From a virus, in IMG/VR virus record IMGVR_UViG_3300015372_000001, positions 1 to 64,000 of that record: 64,000 nt of DNA, one strand, 5' to 3'. Shown piece by piece: positions 1 to 11,739 of this stretch; the first letter of the stretch is position 1, and every line of letters starts with the position of its first letter. Below the pieces are notes generated by a model. That model saw only the letters and a program-made list of their open reading frames with translations. It was not told the DNA's origin and made no database searches. The translations under genes and the position numbers were made by a program.

Positions 1-465
1 AAGGAGATCTTCCAGGGTGTGAACCGGACCAGCCCGACCCTGCGGGAGGTCTTCGACGGTGGTGAAGACTCGATGGATGCCTACCTGGAGACGATCCACC
101 GGACCCGGGCGATCAACGCCGGGATCCCGGACGACGAGCGTGGCTGGAAGGTGGAGCATCACGCGGAGCCGGCCGACCCGCAGACAGCGGACCGGGTGAA
201 GAACCTGGCCTACCTGGCCGAGCAGGCGGTCGGCCACTACGACCAGGGCTCCCAGGAGTACTCCCAGCTGGCGAACCTGGCCACCGACCTGAGGATGAAG
301 GACCTGAAGACGCCGAAGGAGCTGGGGGCCGCAGTCGAGGAGAACAAGCCGGCGGTGGACCTGCTGGCTGCGATGCTGCGGGAGAAGAAGATCCACAACT
401 ACGAGCCGGCCCCGGAACCGAAGCCGAAGCCACTGGGCGGTAGCGGCGGTCCGATCCTGACATGA
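1..465 (+). CDS. hypothetical head-region protein, 5'-truncated
   Basis: Frame open from the window edge, GC3-rich codons, stop overlaps the next ATG (ATGA). Confidence 0.7.
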   Translation, partial: KEIFQGVNRTSPTLREVFDGGEDSMDAYLETIHRTRAINAGIPDDERGWKVEHHAEPADPQTADRVKNLAYLAEQAVGHYDQGSQEYSQLANLATDLRMKDLKTPKELGAAVEENKPAVDLLAAMLREKKIHNYEPAPEPKPKPLGGSGGPILT

Positions 466-2615
466 CCATCACCCCGGCAGTCGAGCTTCGGTTCCATCCG
501 ACCGACCTCGACCATGCCGCGCTGCGCGAGGCGATCCGCCCGCCCGGGACTCCGAGCGAGGCGATCGAGGCAGCCCTGGTGATGGCCCGGCTGTCGGTGA
601 TCACCGCGGCCAAGGCCGAGGTGGCTCAGCTGACCGGGGAGATGAGCGCGGCCAAGCTGATCGGGGCCGCCGACCTGGCCTGGCAGCTCTACGCGCCCAA
701 GTTCGTCCGGACCCTGGGGCCGGTCTTCGCCGCTCAGTACTACGAGACGATGAAGGCCGCCGGGGCCGGGGAGATCCCGATGTCCACGGTCTACGCCCTG
801 GCCGAGCAGCACGCCAGCCGGATCGGCACCTACTACCACGAGAGCAACCGGACCGCGCTGGTCAGCGGGTTCAACACCTTCGTCAACCGGCGGATGACCG
901 AGCGGGTGGCCGCCGACCGGGTGCTGGACGGGTACGGGCTGACATCGCGGGGGATGGCCGGGTACACCTCGCGGGCCCTGGACAAGGCCGCGACCAGCAC
1001 CCCGCTGAAGCTCAAGCAGCGGGCGCTGGACTACATCGGCACCTCGGTCCGCCGGCGGAGCAAGATCTTCGCCACCCAGGAGGAGCACAACATCAGCCAG
1101 CAGGCCGAGCAGATCGCCTGGATGTGGTTGCAGGACAAGGGCAAGCTGACCCCGGCTGCGGAGAAGGTCTGGATCACCGCGCGGGACGAGAAGGTGTGCA
1201 AGATCTGTGGGCCGATGCACAACACCCGGGTGCTGCTGAGCGAGCGGTTCACCCTGCCCAACCAGACCAAGATCTACGTGCCCGGGGTGCACCCGAACTG
1301 CCGGTGCACGGTCCGGCTGCTGGACCACCCGTGGAACGTCGCGGGCACGGTCACCAAGGCCGACTGGGACCCCCAGGAGCACCCGCGCGGGGGCGACCCG
1401 GAGAACGCCGGACGGTTCTCGGCCAAGGCTCGTACCGCTCGACCGAAGCCGGTGGCCGAGGCCGAGGACCTGGCCGAGTTCCAGCAGTTCCTGGACCAGG
1501 CTGCGGCCCAGACCGAGACCCAGCCGCTGGCCCATGATGAGGCGTTGGAGGTGCTGGGTCTGGTGGATGTGCCCAAGGCGGTGCTGGCCCCGTTGGAGGC
1601 CCTGGCACCCAAGCCCACACTGAGCTCGTCGGCCAAGGCCGTGCTGGGGCCGAAGGCGCAGCTGGCATCGTCCCAGCCGCAGCTCGCACCCAAGGCGGTC
1701 CTGGGCGAGGCGAGCCAGGCCAAGGCCAGGCTGGAGCCGAGAGCGAGGGCGAAGATCACTGCCTACGAGCGGCACTGGATGGTGAGCGACACCGAGAAGG
1801 CGTTCCTGGCCTACAGCGAGCAGGCCCGGCGCAAGCTGCAGGTGCCGCAGCCGAACAAGCGGGTCCGGCGCGGGACCAAGTGGGTCACCGACGACATGGG
1901 CAACCCACAGCCGATGTACTACGTCGCCGGGCCGTGGGAGGCCCCCGACCACAACGGGCGGATCGAGCTGCACGACGAGATGGAGTTCACCGGCAACGCC
2001 AAGCGCGCCGCCGACATGGCCGCCCAGGAGTTCGACCAGAACGTCAACGACACCGCCGAGCGGATCAACGACAACGCGGAGAACAAGATCACCCAGAGGT
2101 TCGGGGACGGCCGGAGGTTCGAGGCGACGATCCCGGAGGAGCAGGTCTACGACATCGTGGGCTGGGCCGCCTACCAGGACAAGCCGGAGGACTCGGACTG
2201 GCGGGGAGACCAGACGATCGGGGTGACCTGGAAAGAAGTGGACAAGGACGACATGCCGCTGCCCGACGGCGAGGAGTACGCGGACACGGTGCGGTACTCC
2301 GACATCGCCGAGGAGTGGCACCTGGAGCCGAGCTACTTCAACGTCAGTGTGCTGGTGCTCACCGAGGGCCACTCCTCGACCAAGGGCAAGACCGAGCAGG
2401 TCAACTTCAGGAAGAAGCACGGCTACGACTCCTGGGTCACCACGGGTCCGTACGTCGCGTCCCCGGCCAACCGGGTGTTCGTCGGGAAGTCGCTGCCGAT
2501 CCAGTTCATGGACCTGGTGCCGGAGGACCCGGTGACCATGGAGGAGGACGAGCCGTTCATCGGGTGGCCTGAACCGTCCGACGAGGACCTGTCCGACTAC
2601 GACCGTGGCGACTAG
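462..2615 (+). CDS. MuF/SPP1 gp7-like minor head protein with long C-terminal extension
   Basis: KVWITARDEKVCKICGPMH...HPNCRC motif typical of MuF; HPRGG..GRF motif; located before the protease. Confidence 0.8.
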   Translation: MTITPAVELRFHPTDLDHAALREAIRPPGTPSEAIEAALVMARLSVITAAKAEVAQLTGEMSAAKLIGAADLAWQLYAPKFVRTLGPVFAAQYYETMKAAGAGEIPMSTVYALAEQHASRIGTYYHESNRTALVSGFNTFVNRRMTERVAADRVLDGYGLTSRGMAGYTSRALDKAATSTPLKLKQRALDYIGTSVRRRSKIFATQEEHNISQQAEQIAWMWLQDKGKLTPAAEKVWITARDEKVCKICGPMHNTRVLLSERFTLPNQTKIYVPGVHPNCRCTVRLLDHPWNVAGTVTKADWDPQEHPRGGDPENAGRFSAKARTARPKPVAEAEDLAEFQQFLDQAAAQTETQPLAHDEALEVLGLVDVPKAVLAPLEALAPKPTLSSSAKAVLGPKAQLASSQPQLAPKAVLGEASQAKARLEPRARAKITAYERHWMVSDTEKAFLAYSEQARRKLQVPQPNKRVRRGTKWVTDDMGNPQPMYYVAGPWEAPDHNGRIELHDEMEFTGNAKRAADMAAQEFDQNVNDTAERINDNAENKITQRFGDGRRFEATIPEEQVYDIVGWAAYQDKPEDSDWRGDQTIGVTWKEVDKDDMPLPDGEEYADTVRYSDIAEEWHLEPSYFNVSVLVLTEGHSSTKGKTEQVNFRKKHGYDSWVTTGPYVASPANRVFVGKSLPIQFMDLVPEDPVTMEEDEPFIGWPEPSDEDLSDYDRGD

Positions 2616-2637
2616 ACCGGATCGGGATCATGAAGGT

Positions 2638-3834
2638 ATGAACGACGCGACGTTCCGTGAGGTGGCCGACCTCCTGTTCGGTGGCGGGGGTGACCAGCTG
2701 CTGACGCAGATCGCGAGCGTCAGCAAGATGAACCCCACCCAGTCCGACGTGGCCGCGGACCGGAAGCAGCGCAAGGTCACCGCCGGGCTGAGCGCGATCG
2801 GTGGGACCGCGGGCGCGGCCGGGCTGGGCTATGCCGGCGCGAAGATGGGGAGCGCCGGGAAGAAGGCCTGGAAGGCCTCCCCGACCGCACGCAAGCTTCC
2901 CCGGCTGGCCGGGGCGATCGGGCACGGGGCGAAGAGCGAGAAGGGTGCTGCTCTGCTGCTCCCGCTCGAGGTGGCCGGGCTGGGCGGCGAGATCATGGCC
3001 ACCAAGATCCTGCACGGGGACACCAAGCACGGAGGGCCACCGAAGAAGAAGCCGGGCGCACTGGTGGCCAAGAACGATGTCAACGACATCGTGGAGCAGG
3101 TCGGCCCGATCCCGACCAAGCGCAGTGTGACCCGGGCGGTGGTGGCCAACCCCAAGCTGCAGGCCAAGGGGATCGAGACCACCAAGAAGGCGGGCGGGAT
3201 GCTGAAGAAGCTCCCGGACAAGGTGGCCACCGCCCAGGTGAAGAAGAACGTCACCTACGCCGATGTCTACAACGAGACTGCCTACCGCGCCAAGAACGGT
3301 GGTCCGCTCGCGCGGAGGAAGGCCCAGGGTCATCTGAAGCAGATGGCGGCCTACCAGCACAACAGCCAGGTGGCCGCGATGCCCACCAAGTCCAACCCGT
3401 ACCCGCAGCCGGTCAAGAAGGATCGAGTCGAGGTGACCTGGGCCGGAGAGTTCGCCAAGGCCGACTCGGAGAAGCAGCAGATCTTCGGCTGGGCCTCGGT
3501 GATCGAGATCGACGGCGAGCCGGTGCTGGACCTGCAGGGCGATGTCATCTCCGCCGACGAGATGGAGAAGGCCGGCTACTCCTACGTGATGAAGTCCCGC
3601 AAGGGCGGGGACATGCACCTGCGCGACAACTGGGAGCCGATCCAGAAGAGCGACATGATCGAGAGCTTCATCGTCACCGACGAGAAGCGGGAGGCGATGG
3701 GTCTGCCGGACTCGGTGCCGACCGGCTGGTGGGTGGGCTTCCAGGTCCAGGACCCCCAGGTCTGGAGCGACATCAAGACCGGGAAGCGGACCGGCTTCTC
3801 CATCCACGGGACTGGGAAGAGGACTCCGGCATGA
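2638..3834 (+). CDS. XkdF-like (S78-type) prohead protease with basic N-terminal extension
   Basis: C-terminal QIFGWASV..DLQGDVIS..DMH..ESF..GWWVGF..W..IK.G..TGFSI.G; ATG 2638 preferred over GTG 2605. Confidence 0.8.
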   Translation: MNDATFREVADLLFGGGGDQLLTQIASVSKMNPTQSDVAADRKQRKVTAGLSAIGGTAGAAGLGYAGAKMGSAGKKAWKASPTARKLPRLAGAIGHGAKSEKGAALLLPLEVAGLGGEIMATKILHGDTKHGGPPKKKPGALVAKNDVNDIVEQVGPIPTKRSVTRAVVANPKLQAKGIETTKKAGGMLKKLPDKVATAQVKKNVTYADVYNETAYRAKNGGPLARRKAQGHLKQMAAYQHNSQVAAMPTKSNPYPQPVKKDRVEVTWAGEFAKADSEKQQIFGWASVIEIDGEPVLDLQGDVISADEMEKAGYSYVMKSRKGGDMHLRDNWEPIQKSDMIESFIVTDEKREAMGLPDSVPTGWWVGFQVQDPQVWSDIKTGKRTGFSIHGTGKRTPA

Positions 3835-4511
3835 CCACCAAGAAGCAGAACAAGGGCACCGGGGACCTGGTGCTCGGTGGTGCGGCGACCGCCTACGGCG
3901 CGGCCAACGCGCCGGTGCTGCGTGCCGGTAGCAAAGACATGTCCCGGATGATCAACACCTCCCAGAAGCAGCAGGCCACCCGCTACCAGGCCGAGCTGCA
4001 CGGGGCGATGCAGCGCGGGAGGGTCAAGACCAACAGCCCGGTGCACGTACTGCGGACTCCCTCCGGCCGGCACATCAACGCCGGTGGCACCCACCGGCAG
4101 ATCGCCCGGCAGGCGATGGGCAAGCCGAGTGAGTACAAGATCAAGGACATCTCCCACGAGGTCCATGTCTCACCCGCCCAGATGGTGCGGGGGAGGCTGC
4201 GAGTCGCTGCAGCGCAGCGGGGCTCCAAGCGGGTGCAGGCGGGCAAGACCGTCAAGCCGGTCAGCGGTACCGCGCGCTCGGCGAACCGAGTCAAGATGGC
4301 CATGGACGATGTCGCCGACGAGCACATCTGGTCGCACCCTTCGGCCATCAGCGGGCCGGTCAAGACCGCGCGCAAGGCGGGCCTGAAGAGTGCCGGCCTG
4401 GTCATCGGCGCTGGTGGCCTGTCCACAGCGGTCGGGCTCCATCGGCGCAGCGAGTGGAAGAAGAAGCAACCGGTCCGCAAGTCCGCCTTCGGCATCGACC
4501 ACGGGTACTGA
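3831..4511 (+). CDS. basic head-associated protein, ParB/Srx-like motif, C-terminal SAFGIDHG tag
   Basis: ATGA coupling; PVHVLRTPSG..GGTHRQIARQAMG resembles the ParB-N GxHRxxA motif. Confidence 0.7.
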   Translation: MTTKKQNKGTGDLVLGGAATAYGAANAPVLRAGSKDMSRMINTSQKQQATRYQAELHGAMQRGRVKTNSPVHVLRTPSGRHINAGGTHRQIARQAMGKPSEYKIKDISHEVHVSPAQMVRGRLRVAAAQRGSKRVQAGKTVKPVSGTARSANRVKMAMDDVADEHIWSHPSAISGPVKTARKAGLKSAGLVIGAGGLSTAVGLHRRSEWKKKQPVRKSAFGIDHGY

Positions 4512-4512
4512 C

Positions 4513-5289
4513 ATGACACGCACCATGAGCGACACCGAGATCCGGCACCGGAAGAAGATCCAGGGTCATCTCAGCCAGACCACCGGGGTGCTGGGTCTGT
4601 CCTCGCTGGGGGCCTTCGCCGCGTCCAAGGCACCCGGGGCCAAGGTCCTGGCCAAGACCCCACGCCTGGCCCGGGCGGCATCGAAGATCAACCCGAAGAA
4701 GGCCGAGGGCGCAGCCCTGGGGCTGTCCACCGCCGGTGCCGGGATCGGTGGGGCCGGGTCGTTCAACTTCGCCGCCTACACCGGCGCGGAGTCCAAGAAG
4801 AGGAAGCCAGCGATGCCGGTGACCAAACGTGGAACGACAACGGGACTGACCGGCGACGTGGGCGTTTACGGCGAGATCGGCAAGAAGTGGGAGCCGAGCT
4901 CCTCGAAGTACGACTCGGAGAAGTCGCGGATGAAGCGGGCCCAGGCCTACGAGGACGTGGGCGGCCCGGCGACCGGAGTGCTGGCTGCCGGGGCCGGGGT
5001 CAAGGGGGTCCAGGCGGGCAAGCTGCTGCGGACCAACCGGAAGATCAAGGTCAGCGCGCGGAACCTGCCGAACGTGAGGCGGGCGATGGCCGGCCGTCGG
5101 GAGGCTGCGGTCGGCCACGGCAAGGCAGGGCTCGCCCTGGGTGGTGCGGCAGCGGCCACCGGAGCGGCCACGCTGGCTGTGCGGAACCGGAACCGGTCTC
5201 GATCGTGGGCCCCGTACGCCAAGCGATCGGCCTTCGGTGTGGACCACGGAGGGGTAGTGAGTGGACAGCATCGTGAGACTGAGAACTAG
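4513..5289 (+). CDS. basic Gly/Ala-rich head-associated protein, C-terminal SAFGVDHG tag
   Basis: ORF between protease and scaffold; hydrophobic GA-rich segments. Confidence 0.7.
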   Translation: MTRTMSDTEIRHRKKIQGHLSQTTGVLGLSSLGAFAASKAPGAKVLAKTPRLARAASKINPKKAEGAALGLSTAGAGIGGAGSFNFAAYTGAESKKRKPAMPVTKRGTTTGLTGDVGVYGEIGKKWEPSSSKYDSEKSRMKRAQAYEDVGGPATGVLAAGAGVKGVQAGKLLRTNRKIKVSARNLPNVRRAMAGRREAAVGHGKAGLALGGAAAATGAATLAVRNRNRSRSWAPYAKRSAFGVDHGGVVSGQHRETEN

Positions 5290-5300
5290 AGGTAGATGAG

Positions 5301-6119
5301 ATGCCACGCAAGAACAACCTGACCGACATGGAGATCGATGAGATCTCCACGGTGGACAAGACCGCCAACCAGTTCTCGCGGTTCGTCATCGCGAAGAGGG
5401 CTCCCGAGGAGGATCAGATGCCCCAGATCTACGACCAGGAGGGAACCCCCCTCGACATGGACCAGCTCGAGTTCGGTGATGTCGTCTACGACGACGACGG
5501 CACCGCCTACGAGTACGTCGAGGACACCGGCGAGGAAGAGGTCGAGGACGAGCACAAGGAAGAGCGCAAGGAGGAGCTGGTGGAGACCGGCAAGTCGGCG
5601 TTCTTCAAGCCGCAGACCCAGCAGGCCGGCAGCTTCAGCCAGCAGGTGATGGAGGAGCTGTCCAAGGCGTTCAGCGACGACGACCGTGATGCGGTCATCG
5701 CCAAGGCTCTGGGCCGGGTCGAGGAGCTGGAGAAGGCCCAGCTCGCAGCCCAGACGATCGCCAAGTCCGAGCGCGACCTCCGGCTCACCCGGGAGTACAT
5801 CTCCAAGGCGGCCGACTACAACCTGCCGATCGCTCCCGACGAGCTCGGCCCGGTGCTCTACCGGATGGCCGAGACGATGAGCTACGACGACTGCGCGGTG
5901 ATCGCGAAGTGCCTGGAGACCGCCGGCCAGATCATCTTCGAGGAGGTCGGCTACCAGGGCGGTGGCGACAACGCCGACATCTACAGCCAGGTCGAGGCAC
6001 ACGCCTACGACACGTTCGGCAAGGCCGAGGACTACAACCCGGCCACGGCCGTGAACAAGGTGTTCGACGCCAATCCTGCGGCGTACGACGAGTACCTGCT
6101 CGCACAGCGGAATCGATAG
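5301..6119 (+). CDS. capsid scaffolding protein with N-terminal protease-strand motif
   Basis: Acidic, helical, many xxKA/KS sites; N-terminus LTDMEIDEISTVDKTAN; upstream of the capsid genes. Confidence 0.75.
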   Translation: MPRKNNLTDMEIDEISTVDKTANQFSRFVIAKRAPEEDQMPQIYDQEGTPLDMDQLEFGDVVYDDDGTAYEYVEDTGEEEVEDEHKEERKEELVETGKSAFFKPQTQQAGSFSQQVMEELSKAFSDDDRDAVIAKALGRVEELEKAQLAAQTIAKSERDLRLTREYISKAADYNLPIAPDELGPVLYRMAETMSYDDCAVIAKCLETAGQIIFEEVGYQGGGDNADIYSQVEAHAYDTFGKAEDYNPATAVNKVFDANPAAYDEYLLAQRNR

Positions 6120-6131
6120 GAGGGAAGCTCG

Positions 6132-6536
6132 ATGGCCTACGAAGAGAGCCTACGGTCGATCACGCTGAACGCGGACTCGTCCCTGGGCATCTACACGGGG
6201 GTGCCGGGCCAGCCGGGCTCCCCGGATCCTCACGGAGGGAAGCAGTACCACTTCGTGGTGATCACCGGGGTCCACCAGGTTGGTCTGGCGGACGCGGACG
6301 ACACCGCCGTGGTCGGCGTCATGCAGAACAAGCCGCAGGGTGCCGGGCAGGCCGCGACCGTGGCCATCGCCGGTGTCTCGAAGGTGGTCAGCGATGTCGC
6401 GATCACCGCGGGCGACGCGATCAAGGTCAGCGCCGACGGCCAAGCGGCCAAGACCGGTTCCGGCCCCACGGTCGGACACGCCCTGTCCACTACTGCCAAC
6501 GCTGGGGAACTCGTTGACGTTCTCCTGACGCTCTGA
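6132..6536 (+). CDS. capsid decoration/cement protein (DUF2190-like)
   Basis: 134 aa; VGVMQNKP..G..ATV..GVSKV..AITAGD.I...ADGQA; immediately before the major capsid gene. Confidence 0.75.
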   Translation: MAYEESLRSITLNADSSLGIYTGVPGQPGSPDPHGGKQYHFVVITGVHQVGLADADDTAVVGVMQNKPQGAGQAATVAIAGVSKVVSDVAITAGDAIKVSADGQAAKTGSGPTVGHALSTTANAGELVDVLLTL

Positions 6537-6549
6537 GAGGAGTTGAGTC

Positions 6550-7548
6550 ATGCCGAACCCCACCCAGAGCGATCTCCACGTCAACGTGCCGTTGACCAAC
6601 GTGTCCGTCGCCTACATGCAGGACAAGGCGACGTTCATCGCGGACAAGGTGTTCCCGCGAGTGCCTGTCCAGAAGCAGTCGGACATGTACTGGAAGTACT
6701 CCAAGTCCGACTGGCGTCGGACCGACGCGCAGAAGCGTGCGCCGGGCACCGAGTCGGCCGGAGTCGGCTGGAAGCTCGACACCGGGCAGTACTTCTGCGA
6801 GGTCTGGGCTGTCCACAAGGACATCGATGACCAGGTGCGCGCCAACGCCGACAGCAACTGGCGGCTGGACTCCGACGCCACCCAGTTCGTCACCAACCAG
6901 CTCCTGCTCCGTCGGGACCTGGACTGGAACGACCACTTCTTCAAGACGGGCCTGTGGGGCACCGACCTGACCGGAGTGGCAGCGACCCCATCGGCCGGCC
7001 AGTTCCTGCAGTGGGACAACGCCGCGTCCGACCCGATCGTGCAGTTCGCCAACCTGCAGACCAACTTCGTGCTGCAGTCCGGCCGGAAGGCCAACACCCT
7101 GGTCCTCGGGGCGAACACGATCATCGCCCTGAAGAACCACCCGGACATCATCGACCGGATCAAGTACACGCAGAAGGGCGTGGTCACCACCGACCTGCTG
7201 GCCAGCCTGTTCGACGTGGAGAAGATCCTCGTGTCGTACGCCACCGTCACCGACGTGGCCGAGCTGAACGACGCCAGGGCGCAGGACGCCGCGGCGACGT
7301 ACAAGTTCATGTCCGGGGCCAAGAACGCTCTGCTGTGCTACACCCCGAGCGCTCCCAGCCTGATGACGCCCGCCGCGGGCTACACCTTCACCTGGAACGG
7401 GTACCTGGCTGGCAACAGCTTCGGTGTCCGGATGAAGAACTTCCGGATGGAGTGGATCGAGGCGGACCGGATCGAGGGCGAGATGACCTACGACCAGAGG
7501 ATCATCGCCAGGGACATGGGGATCTTCCTGTCCGGCGCGGTCGCCTGA
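6550..7548 (+). CDS. major capsid protein (lambda gpE-like)
   Basis: 332 aa; LTNVSVAY.Q..FIADKVFP.VPV, L.NHP.II.RIKY; GAGGAG SD; followed by a terminator. Confidence 0.9.
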   Translation: MPNPTQSDLHVNVPLTNVSVAYMQDKATFIADKVFPRVPVQKQSDMYWKYSKSDWRRTDAQKRAPGTESAGVGWKLDTGQYFCEVWAVHKDIDDQVRANADSNWRLDSDATQFVTNQLLLRRDLDWNDHFFKTGLWGTDLTGVAATPSAGQFLQWDNAASDPIVQFANLQTNFVLQSGRKANTLVLGANTIIALKNHPDIIDRIKYTQKGVVTTDLLASLFDVEKILVSYATVTDVAELNDARAQDAAATYKFMSGAKNALLCYTPSAPSLMTPAAGYTFTWNGYLAGNSFGVRMKNFRMEWIEADRIEGEMTYDQRIIARDMGIFLSGAVA

Positions 7549-7562
7549 TCGAGAACTACCCT

Positions 7563-7598
7563 GAGATGGGCTGTGGGTTCCGGCCCGCGGCCCATCTC
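7563..7598 (+). terminator. hairpin terminator after the major capsid gene
   Basis: GAGATGGGCTGTGGG / CCCGCGGCCCATCTC inverted repeat. Confidence 0.65.
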
Positions 7599-7614
7599 TG
7601 TGTGAGGAGCACTG

Positions 7615-8064
7615 ATGCCGAGCCAGCTGATCGACAACCAGGGGATCTCGTTCGTCTGCGCCAAGAGCTTCAAGTGGCGCGACACCGAGTACGAGATGGG
7701 CGACGACTTCCCGGCCGAGGAAGCCAACAACGTCGAGACCATGGTCCGCTCGCGGTTCCTGATCCCGGTGGTGGACGACATCAACGACAAGCCCCGGCAC
7801 TGGCATCGCGAGGTCCAGGTGAAGGACGACGCGCTGGCCAGGCTCCGCCAGGAGGTCGTCCAGATCGTGATGCCCGAGCAGACCCCGGAGACGACCGCGG
7901 AGACGACCGCGGAGACGACCGAGGCCGACGCGGGCTTCGACCCCGGTGAGCACACGGTCACCGAGGTGCTGGACTACATGGAGGACTACCCGGACCAGGC
8001 CGAGACGGTCAGGGCGCGCGAGGCGGCCGGGAAGAACCGCAAGGGGATCGTGGAGGGGTACTGA
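7615..8064 (+). CDS. hypothetical virion protein with C-terminal helical motif
   Basis: GAGGAG SD; C-terminal TVTEVLDY...EAAGKNRKGIV. Confidence 0.75.
   Translation: MPSQLIDNQGISFVCAKSFKWRDTEYEMGDDFPAEEANNVETMVRSRFLIPVVDDINDKPRHWHREVQVKDDALARLRQEVVQIVMPEQTPETTAETTAETTEADAGFDPGEHTVTEVLDYMEDYPDQAETVRAREAAGKNRKGIVEGY
7886..7921 (+). repeat. 3 x 12-bp tandem repeat CGGAGACGACCG (ETTA linker)
   Basis: Three perfect copies read directly. Confidence 0.9.
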
Positions 8065-8273
8065 TGATTAGCGCGTTCGGAGTGGAGCATGGTGAAGTCG
8101 CCAAGGCGTTCAACCCCGCCAAGGCACTGAAGGGGCTGAAGTCCGGCGGTGGCGCACACCGGGCGGCGGGCAAGACTCACCTCCCGGGAAGCACCCGGGC
8201 CCCGCGCGGCAAGTTCGTCTCCCGAGGCACGTTCTTTGGCAGCCCCGAGCGCGGCGGGGCACGGCGGAGGTAG
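8064..8273 (+). CDS. small basic protein, N-terminal SAFGVEHG tag
   Basis: TGATG coupling; MISAFGVEHGEVAK. Confidence 0.7.
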   Translation: MISAFGVEHGEVAKAFNPAKALKGLKSGGGAHRAAGKTHLPGSTRAPRGKFVSRGTFFGSPERGGARRR

Positions 8274-8276
8274 GAC

Positions 8277-8732
8277 ATGTACTCAGCGTTCGGCGTCGAC
8301 CACGGCTACGACGAGATCGAGAAGATCGGCAACCCGGTCGCCGCGCTGCGCACCTTCGGTACCGCGGCCAAGGAGGCGATCAGCCCGCTGAAGGTGAAGA
8401 TGGCCGGTGGCGGTGCCGCCCACCGGGCTCCCGGCTTGGCCGGGATGCCCAAACCTGCCGAGGCGGTCCGCGGCTTCACCGGTGGGGTCGGGGCCAGGGT
8501 CTCCGGCGGCCTGAAGCAGATGGGAGCCAAGGTCTCCGGAGCCCCCGGCAAGCGAGCAGCCCCGGGCCTCCGGGGCCGGGTCGGTGGCGCGCTGACCTCG
8601 CTGGGCCAGAGGTCGTTCAGCCACCCGATCGGCACCGGGGCCGCGGCTCTGGGTGCCGGTGGGGCTGCGGTCGGAGGCGGAGGTCTCGCGGCCGGGCACG
8701 CAGCCTTCGGGGGTCGCAGGCGGCAGCCGTGA
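8277..8732 (+). CDS. basic Gly/Ala-rich protein, N-terminal SAFGVDHG tag
   Basis: GGAGG SD; MYSAFGVDHGYDEIEK. Confidence 0.75.
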   Translation: MYSAFGVDHGYDEIEKIGNPVAALRTFGTAAKEAISPLKVKMAGGGAAHRAPGLAGMPKPAEAVRGFTGGVGARVSGGLKQMGAKVSGAPGKRAAPGLRGRVGGALTSLGQRSFSHPIGTGAAALGAGGAAVGGGGLAAGHAAFGGRRRQP

Positions 8733-9244
8733 CCATGACCTACTCCTACGAGGGGGCCGGGGAGTCCGACAAGGACACCATCCGGTTCCTGCTCCAGGAC
8801 ACCGATCCGCACGATGCCGGTGAGTGGCAGGTCAGCGATGAGGAGATCCAGTACGCCTACGACACCTGGTTTCCGAAGTACAACACCCTCTACTACGTGG
8901 CGGCGGCCCTCGCTGATACGATCGCCGGGCGTTACGCACGCGAGGCGTCTTACAGCGCCGACGGAGTGAGCGTCAGCCTCGGGCCGGTTGGAGACCAGTA
9001 CCGAGCGCTGGCCTCCTCCCTCCGTGCGCAGGACCAGGCGATCCAGGTCGGGACCGTGCCCGATGCCGGTGGGATCGCTCCCAACGAGCAGCTGCTGCCG
9101 GGGACCAAGCCGTTCGCCTTCGGCAAGGGCATGCACGACAACATCGAGGCCGGTGCCCAGGAGCTCGGCGGGGTCTACCCGCCGGACATCCCGGTCGAGG
9201 GCAACCCGAACGTGCCGGACGCCGAGCGGATCGTGGAGCCATGA
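8729..9244 (+). CDS. head-to-tail adaptor
   Basis: IRFLLQDTD...SDEEI motif; position in the operon. Confidence 0.75.
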   Translation: MTMTYSYEGAGESDKDTIRFLLQDTDPHDAGEWQVSDEEIQYAYDTWFPKYNTLYYVAAALADTIAGRYAREASYSADGVSVSLGPVGDQYRALASSLRAQDQAIQVGTVPDAGGIAPNEQLLPGTKPFAFGKGMHDNIEAGAQELGGVYPPDIPVEGNPNVPDAERIVEP

Positions 9245-9474
9245 GCTACGACAAGGCCAAGTACGACGCGCTCCGCAGCGCCGGGGTGTCGGCCAAGCTC
9301 GCGCTGGCGCTGACCCAGGAGAACCTCCCCAACATCGCGGCCGACCCGGACCGGAAGGTCCCGCACCCGCCGATCGAGAAGCTGCCGGCCAACGCCAACC
9401 AGAAGCAGAACTCCGAGAAGATCAACGAGATCATCGACGTGCTCAACGAGGTGCTGGAGTTCGAGGGGTCATGA
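9241..9474 (+). CDS. small virion/head-fibre-like protein
   Basis: Coupled ORF; C-terminal KINEIIDVL. Confidence 0.65.
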   Translation: MSYDKAKYDALRSAGVSAKLALALTQENLPNIAADPDRKVPHPPIEKLPANANQKQNSEKINEIIDVLNEVLEFEGS

Positions 9475-9716
9475 TCAGTGCGTTCGGCGTGGAGCACACC
9501 GTCTCCAAGGGGCTGTCCCGGAACCAGCTCAAGGGGCTGCTCGCGGTCAAGAACGCCCGTGGCACCGGACGTGAGCAGTACGCCGCAGCTCGGTACCAGG
9601 CGCACCGGATCGGACGGCAGAACGCACTCGGCTCGAAGACGGTCGGCGGGAACCTGAAGAAGATCGGCCGGATGACGATGGCCTCCGCCCAGGGTCGGGG
9701 CAGGAAGCTGCCATGA
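9471..9716 (+). CDS. small basic protein, N-terminal SAFGVEH tag
   Basis: ATGA coupling at both ends; MISAFGVEHTVSK. Confidence 0.7.
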   Translation: MISAFGVEHTVSKGLSRNQLKGLLAVKNARGTGREQYAAARYQAHRIGRQNALGSKTVGGNLKKIGRMTMASAQGRGRKLP

Positions 9717-10126
9717 CCAGCCCGATCACCGCCGAGGCCCGAGCCTTCGTCCGGAACCGGGCCACCGAGGTGATGGAGTACACCTGCCGGATCACCCGGC
9801 GCAGCCTGCCCGAGGGCTACGACGAGGACACCCTGGTCTACACCCCCGACGGCCTGGCCGAGGTGATCTACGAGGGCGTCTGCCGGCTCTGGGAGGTGTC
9901 CGGTGCGGCCACGGTCGTGGTCGGGGACACTGACATCTACCAGCAGACCACGCAGCTGTCCATCCCTTGGGACACCACTGCTCTCATCATGCGATACGAC
10001 GAGGTGGAGATCCTGACCGCGCCCACCGACTCCCAGGAGGTCGGCAAGCGATACGAGATCCAGACGGTGGCGAAGGCGGGTGAGCTGCGGGCCACTCGGC
10101 GCTTCGAGGTCACCGGGGTGATGTGA
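9713..10126 (+). CDS. head closure/stopper protein (DUF6093-like)
   Basis: TCRITR...YEGVCRL...LSIP...TRRF pattern. Confidence 0.7.
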   Translation: MTSPITAEARAFVRNRATEVMEYTCRITRRSLPEGYDEDTLVYTPDGLAEVIYEGVCRLWEVSGAATVVVGDTDIYQQTTQLSIPWDTTALIMRYDEVEILTAPTDSQEVGKRYEIQTVAKAGELRATRRFEVTGVM

Positions 10127-10821
10127 TGCTGTCCGCCTTCGGCGTAGACCACGGCGAGGTCTACAAGGGCTACCAGGACCAGCCCCGCGATGATCGTGGC
10201 CGGTGGGCGGCTGCGCACGCGCAGGGCCGTCGGGACGTGAAGCAGGAGGGGCTGCTCTCCGACGAGGACCTGGACCAGCAGTACGAGTCCTACCACGTCG
10301 ACTACAAGTCGCTGTGGCATCTGGCGGAGAAGAACCCCCAGCAGTTCCGCAAGCTGCGTCAGGAGCTGATGGAGGAGGCCCACTACTGGCACGGTCGCAA
10401 GGAGTTCGACCTGTCCGACGACATCCTGACCGCGGTCGAGACTGGCGACGAGATCCGGGCCAAGCAGAAGAAGGCCAAGCGGAAGCCCAGCACCAAGAAG
10501 CCAGTCGCCAAGGCCTTCGTGAAACTCCGTCCGAAGCTGGCCAGAGGGCTGGAGGACGAGGGCGTCAAGGCGCACCTGACCATGAACCAGAAGATGCGGC
10601 GGCATGCTGTTCAGGCTCGGATGGGTGCAGGCGGACAGGGACAGAGCGTGCTTCGCCGGATGCCTGCTGAGAGGCGCGAGGCGATGTTGAGTGGACCGCA
10701 CTCGACCAAGTACGGCAAGCCAGGTACCCGTCACGAGGTGCTGCGCCAGCAGAAGGTCGGTGCCCAGGGCATCTACGACACGCTGGGCCGCCAGGGCCGG
10801 GCGAAGAAGGTGCTGCCATGA
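10123..10821 (+). CDS. head-associated protein, N-terminal SAFGVDHG tag and PRDDRGRW motif
   Basis: MLSAFGVDHGEVYK; coupled to its neighbours. Confidence 0.7.
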   Translation: MMLSAFGVDHGEVYKGYQDQPRDDRGRWAAAHAQGRRDVKQEGLLSDEDLDQQYESYHVDYKSLWHLAEKNPQQFRKLRQELMEEAHYWHGRKEFDLSDDILTAVETGDEIRAKQKKAKRKPSTKKPVAKAFVKLRPKLARGLEDEGVKAHLTMNQKMRRHAVQARMGAGGQGQSVLRRMPAERREAMLSGPHSTKYGKPGTRHEVLRQQKVGAQGIYDTLGRQGRAKKVLP

Positions 10822-11273
10822 CCTCCGAGGCCTCCGCCGACATCAGCAAGCTGGCCGAGGCGCTGCGCCGGACCGCTGCCGAGTCTCACACCACCACCTT
10901 CGACGTGATGGTGCAGTCGGCCAACTTCATCCGGAACGAGATGCTGGCCCTGGTCCCGGTCAAGACCGGGGTGCTGCGGAACTCGATCCACATCCAGGTG
11001 GAGTCCGACCGGGTGATCATCGGGCCGAACATGAGCCAGGCTCCGTACGCCGGCTACGTCGAGTTCGGGACCAAGCCGCACGTCATCCGGGCGAGCAAGG
11101 CCAAGGCTCTCCGGTTCATGGTCGGGAGCACCGTGGTGTACGCCAAGAAGGTCAACCACCCCGGGACCAAGCCCCACCCCTACGTCGAGCCGGCCTTCCA
11201 GCACTGGGTGGACAGTCTCGGGACGATGGCAGCAGAAGCCAACGTGAGGACGTTCCGAGACAATGCCAGGTAG
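10818..11273 (+). CDS. HK97 gp10-like tail completion protein
   Basis: VPVKTGVLRNSI...YAGYVEFGT...HPGTKPHPY. Confidence 0.85.
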   Translation: MTSEASADISKLAEALRRTAAESHTTTFDVMVQSANFIRNEMLALVPVKTGVLRNSIHIQVESDRVIIGPNMSQAPYAGYVEFGTKPHVIRASKAKALRFMVGSTVVYAKKVNHPGTKPHPYVEPAFQHWVDSLGTMAAEANVRTFRDNAR

Positions 11274-11739
11274 CCCCAACACGATCTCCCGAGGACCGAT
11301 CACCAACCGGATCCTCGAGCAGCTCGCGACCGAGGGGTTCCCGGTCGGGGACAACTCGGCACCGACGGTGCCGTTCGGATGGCAGGGGGAGCCGAACCAG
11401 CCCGGGATGACGTTCACCCCGTGGTTGTCGCTGTCCCCGGCCGGGTCGATCCCGCAGAACCCGGCGGGGCCGCTGGCCAACACCTACGCGGACTGGAAGC
11501 TGTCCTACTCGGTCTTCTACGCCGGCCTGTCGAGGAAGCAGACCGAGGCGCTGGCGGACCGGATGCGGCACAACCTGACCTACATGGAGCGGGAGTCGAT
11601 CGAGACCAAGACCGGCAACTGGAAGGTCCAGAAGGTCGCGTGCGTCGCGATCGGCAACACTAACCGGATCAGTTCGGCCTATCCGGACTACTTCACACAG
11701 GCAGACTCGTTCGAGGTCTGGGTCAGCAAGGGGAGTTGA
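11263..11739 (+). CDS. tail terminator protein
   Basis: Between the gp10-like and major tail genes; expected size. Confidence 0.65.
   Translation: MPGSPNTISRGPITNRILEQLATEGFPVGDNSAPTVPFGWQGEPNQPGMTFTPWLSLSPAGSIPQNPAGPLANTYADWKLSYSVFYAGLSRKQTEALADRMRHNLTYMERESIETKTGNWKVQKVACVAIGNTNRISSAYPDYFTQADSFEVWVSKGS

Follow-up and report, generated by a model that had tools for sequence, protein, structure and literature searches.

Identification of a shared heptapeptide in the head module

The DNA analysed here, referred to as the window, is the whole 64,000-nucleotide stretch covering positions 1 to 64,000 of the virus record IMGVR_UViG_3300015372_000001, an IMG/VR entry of 80.7 kb with 65–70% G+C from an uncultured soil phage. 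Its head module occupies positions 462–11,700 on the + strand, where head-completion genes are interleaved with four small unassigned genes. These four, and two unassigned genes located between those of the protease and the scaffold, carry the element in question, the heptapeptide SAFG[VI][DE]H (hereafter the tag; the rest of a tagged protein is called its cargo body). A six-frame scan of the window returned the tag six times, always on the + strand (nucleotides (nt) 4482, 5227, 8070, 8283, 9477, and 10132), against a chance expectation of 0.0003 copies derived from the six-frame amino-acid composition. These are exactly the six copies named in the original prediction, which had been made from the DNA letters and had proposed a portable address label that is later clipped off.

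Two of the tags lie near a C-terminus, 2 residues from the stop in the product of 3831–4511 and 13 residues from it in that of 4513–5289. The other four are found at residues 3–4 of the proteins encoded at 8064–8273, 8277–8732, 9471–9716, and 10123/10126–10821. Of the two starts considered for the last of these genes, 10126 (ATG) is likelier than 10123; it yields M-L, the common two-residue leader. Re-reading of the window returned the same Ser codons (TCC, TCG, AGC, TCA, AGT, and TCC) and the same flanks as had been claimed, namely EVAK, EIEK, TVSK, and EVYK following the N-terminal tags and, ahead of the C-terminal ones, VRK and AKR. With the tag masked, the six proteins displayed no convincing mutual similarity, in line with the earlier description of their remainders as dissimilar; the best match, between the products of 8064 and 8277, reached an E-value of 0.006 over 54 amino acids (aa). 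Two further N-terminal tags were identified in the rest of the genome (G000), just beyond the window, at 64205 and 65038.

Distribution of the tag among related phages

Using the capsid protein as an anchor, 80 related loci were taken from IMG/VR. The original prediction had called for a motif search in related phages, and the strict tag was observed in 57 of these 80 loci, with 1–7 copies per locus. All 190 tags of the capsid-anchored loci are located on the strand of the capsid gene, between −9 and +4 kb from it. The presence of the tag reaches down to about 63% capsid identity, and at about 57% identity a relaxed motif revealed a variant, NAFGV[EQD][HV], followed by x-[IVL]-[SA]-K. This variant, in the form NAFGV[EQD][HV]-x-[PST]-[IL]-[SA]-K, was observed in L062 (5057–6685 and 11703–12344) and in L061, L064, and L065, and the NAFGV type also occurs twice inside one 542-aa protein of these relatives. 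The tag was not found in relatives at capsid identities of 45% or lower, and a k-mer search for alternative tags in the tag-less relatives returned noise only.

In an independent scan, a back-translated DNA pattern of the tag was compared with all 2.9 million viral contigs, which yielded 62 new loci, 54 of them with the same core head genes. The tag DNA pattern was also searched against prokaryote genomes, where no true copy was present among the 120 matches listed, only single chance-like matches. The tag is confined to one clade of uncultured phages, whose capsid protein is of the lambda-E type and whose head protease is of the XkdF type. At the protein level, a profile of the N-terminal tag was searched against 1.84 billion representative proteins (cut-off E ≤0.001) and matched 559 protein clusters at 50% identity; among the best 150 of these library matches, the tag was located at residue 3–4 in 144. 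The motif strings matched no paper in the literature library that was searched. Turnover of the tagged genes appears in phages with 93% identical capsid proteins, which leave most tagged genes unshared while their core head genes are 70–90% identical.

Conservation and portability of the tag

The tag is conserved as a peptide and not as a DNA repeat, as had been proposed. Across 193 distinct DNA contexts, codon positions 1 and 2 were fixed, while the four-fold degenerate third positions varied freely and contained 0–0.2 bits. The Ser codon was AGY in 85 contexts and TCN in 108, and the third base of the Gly codon was T in 50, G in 50, C in 51, and A in 42. This even use of the four bases at the Gly codon was observed despite genomes of about 66% G+C; it could reflect a pressure that keeps repeated tags unlike in DNA, avoiding recombination between them.

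In the viral contigs, 194 distinct tag instances were collected, comprising 142 N-terminal, 36 C-terminal, and 16 others. Among these 16, about eight are truly internal, several are N-terminal with a longer leader, and 2 are chance matches in unrelated long proteins. A two-residue leader (M-x) precedes the tag in 121 of the 142 N-terminal instances, and a Shine-Dalgarno-like motif was present upstream in 112 of them, so the start codons are supported. When the tag was masked, the 192 tagged proteins fell into 70 BLAST clusters, representing at least 70 cargo families without mutual relationship. Homologous cargo with tags at opposite ends was also identified: the protein of L083 (N-terminal tag) and that of L099 (C-terminal tag) share 40% identity over 249 aa (E 3e-40), and a second such pair, from L094 and L084, shares 53% identity over 104 aa. 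Judged by these alignments, homologous cargo has had its tag shifted from one end to the other.

One relative encodes a tagged member of the Portal_Mu family (L126:19–1383), in which the tag follows residue 379, is flanked by KKVKK and DISK, and is succeeded by 75 residues. This protein may be either a portal-cargo fusion or a portal with a processed tail.

Putative cleavage site between tag and cargo

A hydrophobic-x-Lys site (φ-x-K; around the tags, φ was counted as [IVLFM]) accompanies the tag. It was observed 0–7 residues after the tag in all 142 N-terminal instances, most frequently as ISK (48) or VSK (44). For C-terminal and internal tags the site lies on the other side, with φ-x-K found 0–6 residues before the tag in 26 of 48 instances, compared with a background rate of 21% in the same proteins; most of the others contain Y-x-K. 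Among the best 150 library matches, 14 are polyproteins carrying 2–4 tags and the other 136 are single-tagged. The polyprotein unit reads φ-x-K↓SAFGVEH-(1–3 residues)-φ-x-K↓, where arrows mark predicted cuts, which makes the tag a spacer about 12 residues long that is flanked by sites. Since φ-x-K switches sides with the tag, it is best read as a cleavage site separating tag and cargo and not as half of a binding motif.

The same pattern was examined in the scaffold and in the cargo. The scaffold of the window contains 11 φ-x-K sites versus 3.4 expected (a 3–4-fold excess, z 5.1), mostly followed by Ala or Ser, and an excess was present in all 21 scaffold orthologues (z 3.2–5.9), tag-less relatives included. 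In the cargo bodies, counted with one protein per cluster (64 proteins, 6877 residues), φ-x-K occurred 66 times versus 122 expected (ratio 0.54, z −5.7). Control patterns in these bodies were close to expectation (φ-K 0.98, φ-x-x-K 0.97, K-x-φ 1.09), and φ-x-R was raised (1.39), as if Arg had taken the place of Lys at such positions. In the other 76 proteins of the genome, the φ-x-K ratio was 0.95. Sequence logos of positions P4–P1′ agree between the two sets of sites, with E-[IV]-S-K followed by A/G next to the tag and [EV]-[IVL]-[ASG]-K followed by A/S in the scaffold. The depletion of φ-x-K in the cargo bodies suggests that the cargo meets the protease and is meant to survive it, and we regard it as the best indirect sign that the cargo is in the prohead and stays there.

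A second type of leader or spacer, (K-K-N)-D-P-F-E-[IV]-x-K, was observed in relatives only, with 11 distinct instances in the loci (among them L088 6890–8998, L132, L036 8264, L040 6942, and L047 7283) and two in protein P0082. The basic polyproteins in which it lies, either N-terminally or as a link from one module to the next, are those that also bear the SAFG tag, and it shares with the SAFG leader only the E-[IV]-x-K end.

Characteristics of the cargo proteins

The cargo was described in the original prediction as Lys/Arg-rich. The cargo bodies of the six window proteins have net charges of +12 to +35, and all 164 complete cargo bodies are net positive. For N-tagged cargo, the medians are +14 for net charge and 99 aa for length, and the overall composition of the cargo is 18% K+R, 4% D+E, and 33% G+A. 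The best 150 library matches are alike in composition, with a minimum charge of +6.

About two thirds of the cargo proteins contain an uncharged stretch of at least 18 residues, typically rich in Gly, Ala, Thr, and Leu, moderately hydrophobic, and often near the C-terminus with a basic tail after it. In many cargo families, for example L016:2901–3227 and L023:3556–3852, the C-terminus consists of R/H-P-G-L-T-G-T-A-L-V-G-G-G-G-A-A-G-Y-K and a basic tail. This C-terminal, glycine-zipper-like segment may act on membranes. By composition, the cargo resembles internal proteins of a protamine-like or membrane-active kind more than it does a group of enzymes. Plausible roles are to neutralise the charge of the packaged DNA and to exit together with it.

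Protease, scaffold, and candidate receptor

The XkdF-type prohead protease is presumed to be the enzyme that removes the tag. Before its XkdF domain, it has a basic, Gly/Ala-rich N-terminal extension, which is absent from two tag-less relatives (L057 and L060). Within this extension (aa 34–49, window 2704–2751), a conserved [IV]-[SA]-K was observed, followed in most of 17 homologues by x-N/S-P-x-Q-S-D; the latter, NPTQSD in the window, copies the N-terminus of the capsid protein (MPNPTQSDL). Directly before the protease domain, a second motif, GE[FI][AS]K, is kept in 17 of 17 homologues. Some relatives encode tagged proteins of 430–450 aa at 3.5 kb upstream of their capsid gene. These were considered as the protease and rejected, as Pfam detected no XkdF domain in them; the actual protease of those relatives is encoded by the untagged gene just before.

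The capsid protein and the scaffold themselves contain no full tag. The scaffold does possess a tag-like V-G-K↓S-A-F-F (aa 96–102, window 5586–5606), with the acidic N-terminal part of the protein on one side and the helical C-terminal part on the other. This element is found in all relatives with capsid identity of at least 72%, and in more distant relatives a cargo-like, Gly/Ala-rich basic insert occupies its place. It was rejected as the receptor of the tag because some phages with tags are without it. The major capsid protein is a candidate for this role.

Proposed function and alternative explanations

The reading we favour, and consider probable, is that SAFG[VI][DE]H acts as a position-independent capsid-loading tag, which the XkdF-type protease cuts off in the prohead while the cargo stays with the DNA. 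Late in infection, about eight small, strongly basic, Gly/Ala-rich proteins would be made with the heptapeptide at the N- or C-terminus, and in relatives the heptapeptide would also stand between polyprotein modules. It would dock the precursor on the assembling prohead, either on the inner face of the capsid protein, on the scaffold, or on the protease. In the prohead, the XkdF-type maturation protease would cut E-[IV]-[SA]-K before A, G, or S, a predicted substrate being a peptide of the type SAFGVDHGEISK↓A cut after Lys, and scaffold degradation would proceed at this site as well. With the site placed at the junction of tag and cargo, cutting would free the cargo, which would resist more cleavage, remain with the DNA, and either neutralise its charge or accompany it out of the virion at infection. 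We infer prohead binding, cleavage by the XkdF-type protease, retention in the virion, and the action of the cargo from sequence, and every sequence-level test that was run agrees with the portable, removable label of the original prediction. A tentative extension, which we would call possible but doubtful, is that the tag docks, at either end of the cargo, on the inside of a phage capsid of the HK97 fold, encapsulin-like but with release by a protease, loading protamine-like, glycine-zipper proteins, partly produced as polyproteins, that travel with the DNA.

Four other explanations were weighed. The heptapeptide might belong to a processing cassette only, as an exosite through which the prohead protease is directed to the adjacent φ-x-K cuts, while the cargo enters otherwise, for example by charge attraction to the acidic scaffold. 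This would suit the polyproteins, where the tag is a spacer with a cut site at each side, as well as the tag-like V-G-K↓S-A-F-F of the scaffold and the second spacer DPFE[IV]xK, which shares just the cut-site end; in addition, the scaffold is very acidic and every cargo protein is basic. We nevertheless regard it as unlikely, since the predominance of single tags (136 of the best 150 library matches) and of tags at residue 3–4 (144 of the 150) points to mostly single-module cargo. On such cargo and in the 36 C-terminal instances, the cut would remove just the recognition element, and an invariant heptapeptide would be kept merely for removal, with no evident purpose. If hundreds of unrelated proteins keep an invariant heptapeptide at one end or the other that is later cut off, the heptapeptide must act before its removal. 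Given late genes among head genes and the precedent of phage T4, loading into the prohead would be the simplest function of this kind. A clearly smaller probability is assigned to a permanent anchor, in which the tag stays and pins basic tails to the inner capsid wall or the portal, with φ-x-K as part of the binding motif. Multi-tag polyproteins would then bind at several points, the tagged portal protein of L126 carries its tag near the C-terminus, and encapsulin targeting peptides do stay on their cargo (PMC10960027). Against it, φ-x-K changes sides whenever the tag does, so as always to be next to the cargo, and its 3–4-fold enrichment in the scaffold, a protein that has to be removed, together with its avoidance in cargo, where φ-x-Arg is not avoided, is the pattern of a cleavage site.

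The two remaining explanations do without a link to the capsid or without a functional peptide. Degrons read by ClpX-type machines are possible at either terminus, and the tag could be a signal read by the host or a chaperone, serving for degradation, for export, or for chaperone binding that prevents harm from toxic basic or glycine-zipper proteins in the cytoplasm; the Gly/Ala-rich uncharged stretches (at least 18 residues) present in about half of the cargo could act on membranes. This explanation is very improbable, given that the tag also lies inside polyproteins, is restricted to one phage clade, where it stands among late structural genes and on their strand only, and has no true copy among the 120 prokaryote-genome matches listed; the cut-site statistics of the scaffold would also be left unexplained. 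A DNA or RNA element at gene junctions, for example a linker for recombination or a signal for translational coupling, with the peptide only apparent, has next to no probability. Every copy does lie at a gene boundary, and closely related phages show rapid turnover of cargo genes, but such an element is ruled out because synonymous positions are free (0–0.2 bits at four-fold sites) and Ser switches between AGY and TCN; it is refuted in practice.

Several observations weigh against the capsid-loading tag that we favour. The proposed cleavage after Lys comes from site statistics only, and such a cut would escape ordinary tryptic proteomics, as trypsin likewise cleaves after Lys and hides a natural cut. 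The GE[FI][AS]K motif was considered as a site freeing the protease domain and rejected: in a low-confidence AlphaFold2 model, Lys285 (GEFAK) lies inside the β-strand 274–287, for which reason the conservation of the motif is probably structural. A search for a receptor gene identified no head gene that is present only where tags are present. Searches of the cargo with Pfam, PHROGs, ESM Atlas, and homology tools matched almost no known domain or fold, and its role was therefore guessed from composition. All ten library matches that were looked up are of metagenome origin and unnamed or annotated as “hypothetical”, and no member of the clade is cultured. Furthermore, the two tagged genes beyond the window adjoin tail-fibre genes, outside the head module.

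Comparison with known systems

The internal proteins of phage T4 are diverse and have in common a capsid-targeting sequence alone, which loads them into the scaffolding core (PMC3012670); from IPI, IPII, and IPIII, this sequence is removed by the prohead protease gp21 (PMC3012670; PMC9026906). The tag resembles the T4 sequence as a short terminal peptide that is the only feature common to diverse basic proteins, here encoded among head genes, and it likewise ends in a head-protease cut motif, a hydrophobic residue, any residue, and a charged residue, at which cleavage is presumed here. The scaffold holds the same cut motif in both systems and is degraded in T4, as is predicted for the window. 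By analogy, the tag should also be portable to foreign proteins. The two peptides have no sequence similarity, and whereas the T4 sequence is N-terminal only, 36 C-terminal and about eight internal tags were observed here. Other differences from T4 include a putative P1 residue of Lys and not Glu, a protease of the XkdF type (Peptidase_S78_2) and not of the gp21 type, a lambda-E-type capsid protein in a gene order resembling that of a long-tailed, non-contractile phage, and cargo that is nearly all low-complexity and basic, without recognisable enzymes or inhibitors.

Encapsulin targeting peptides are short linear peptides at one end of the cargo that load it into an HK97-fold shell (PMC8229669; PMC10960027). 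Both systems have a terminal peptide on the cargo and cargo genes near an HK97-type shell gene. The encapsulin peptides follow other consensus sequences and are uncleaved, in contrast to the apparently removed phage tag, and the encapsulin shell has no portal, DNA, scaffold, or protease, whereas genes for a portal, a MuF-like protein, a protease, a scaffold, and tail proteins are present here. Adenovirus pVI, pVII, and pre-mu, precursors of core and cement proteins, are strongly basic and DNA-condensing and have short terminal propeptides that are cut in the capsid by the maturation protease, and one adenovirus terminal propeptide docks inside a capsid protein. The lineage of these precursors is unrelated, its protease and cut motif differ from those described here, and no single tag is common to them.

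In the giant phages phiKZ and SPN3US, the propeptides of ejection and inner-body proteins are cut at S/A/G-x-E (PMC10052503; PMC5694885). As in these phages, many head-internal proteins here would carry a short prohead-protease motif, with cutting again presumed. Their propeptides are long, mutually unlike, N-terminal only, and without a heptapeptide, and they are cut after Glu by a T4-type protease. The capsid and scaffold proteins of phage 80-alpha share an N-terminal leader that mimics ribosomal protein L27 and is removed by the host protease Prp. There too, several head-encoded proteins begin with the same short leader, whose removal in the present phage is putative; in 80-alpha the leader is on the capsid and scaffold proteins, whereas here the capsid protein (MPNPTQSDL) and the scaffold (MPRKNNL) begin without a tag.

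To our knowledge, experimentally established capsid-targeting tags are mainly those of T4. New in the present case are the small lambda-E/XkdF-type head, a tag located at either end and between modules, and an implied Lys-specific head protease. If the proposal is true, the 559 clusters at 50% identity, all now annotated as “hypothetical”, make up an extensive and so far hidden group of basic internal proteins in such phages, a testable cut motif becomes available for the uncharacterised XkdF protease family, and a 7-residue loading tag for either end could be used for packing foreign proteins and for phage engineering. Scaffold enrichment combined with cargo depletion of a cut site is a paired test that is applicable to other phages.

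Gene organization of the head module

The genes of the head module and the tagged genes are listed in Table 1.

Table 1. Head genes and tagged genes of the genome, with predicted cuts given for N-terminally tagged products
Feature	Coordinates	Strand	Description
MuF-like minor head protein	462–2615	+	Pfam/PHROG match; first gene of the head module
Prohead protease, XkdF-type	2605–3834	+	Pfam Peptidase_S78_2, aa 282–406, E 1.2e-16
Cargo gene, C-terminal tag	3831–4511	+	Tag nt 4482–4502, SAFGIDH then GY and stop; V-R-K directly before
Cargo gene, near-C-terminal tag	4513–5289	+	Tag nt 5227–5247, SAFGVDH plus 13 aa; Y-A-K-R before
Scaffold protein	5301–6119	+	11 hydrophobic-x-Lys sites vs 3.4 expected; starts MPRKNNL
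Head decoration or cement protein	6132–6536	+	Pfam/PHROG searches
Major capsid protein, lambda gpE type	6550–7548	+	phrog_1005 “major head protein”, E 1e-86
Cargo gene, 69 aa, N-terminal tag	8064–8273	+	M-I-SAFGVEH-G-EVAK; predicted cut after Lys14, nt 8103–8105
Cargo gene, 151 aa, N-terminal tag	8277–8732	+	M-Y-SAFGVDH-GYD-EIEK; predicted cut after Lys16, nt 8322–8324
Cargo gene, 81 aa, N-terminal tag	9471–9716	+	M-I-SAFGVEH-TVSK; predicted cut after Lys13, nt 9507–9509
Cargo gene, N-terminal tag	10123–10821	+	M-L-SAFGVDH-G-EVYK; predicted cut after Lys, nt 10165–10167
Two more tagged basic genes, beyond the window	G000 64199–65020 and 65032–65256 (L264:2199–3020 and 3032–3256)		MK-SAFGVEHGEFSK and MQ-SAFGVEHGEISK

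The cargo encoded at 3831–4511 has a net charge of +25, and searches of this product with Pfam and PHROG returned no match. The neighbouring gene at 4513–5289 represents the best-conserved tagged family, which is located between the protease and scaffold genes in relatives. Gly and Ala make up 45% of the cargo body of 8277–8732. The product of 10123–10821 is the sole cargo in the window that is not of low complexity; it is nearly an orphan, with an ESM Atlas model of low confidence. Beyond the window, the two tagged genes are located directly upstream of a collagen-repeat gene and a gene for a 1229-aa tail-collar fibre, and about 11 kb upstream of the portal gene.

The nearest cultured phages, with 40–48% capsid identity, infect Rhizobium, Arthrobacter, Microbacterium, Pseudomonas, and Roseobacter. 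A match of 42 bp to the capsid gene of Arthrobacter phage Kharcho was observed at window positions 7129–7170, inside the capsid gene. The HK97 fold of the capsid protein is assumed from its family. The two ends of the record lie inside one open reading frame that would amount to about 1230 aa, has no Pfam match, is positioned between the portal and MuF genes, and runs from L264:15483–18737 into window positions 1–465. If these ends join, the record would be a permuted complete genome.

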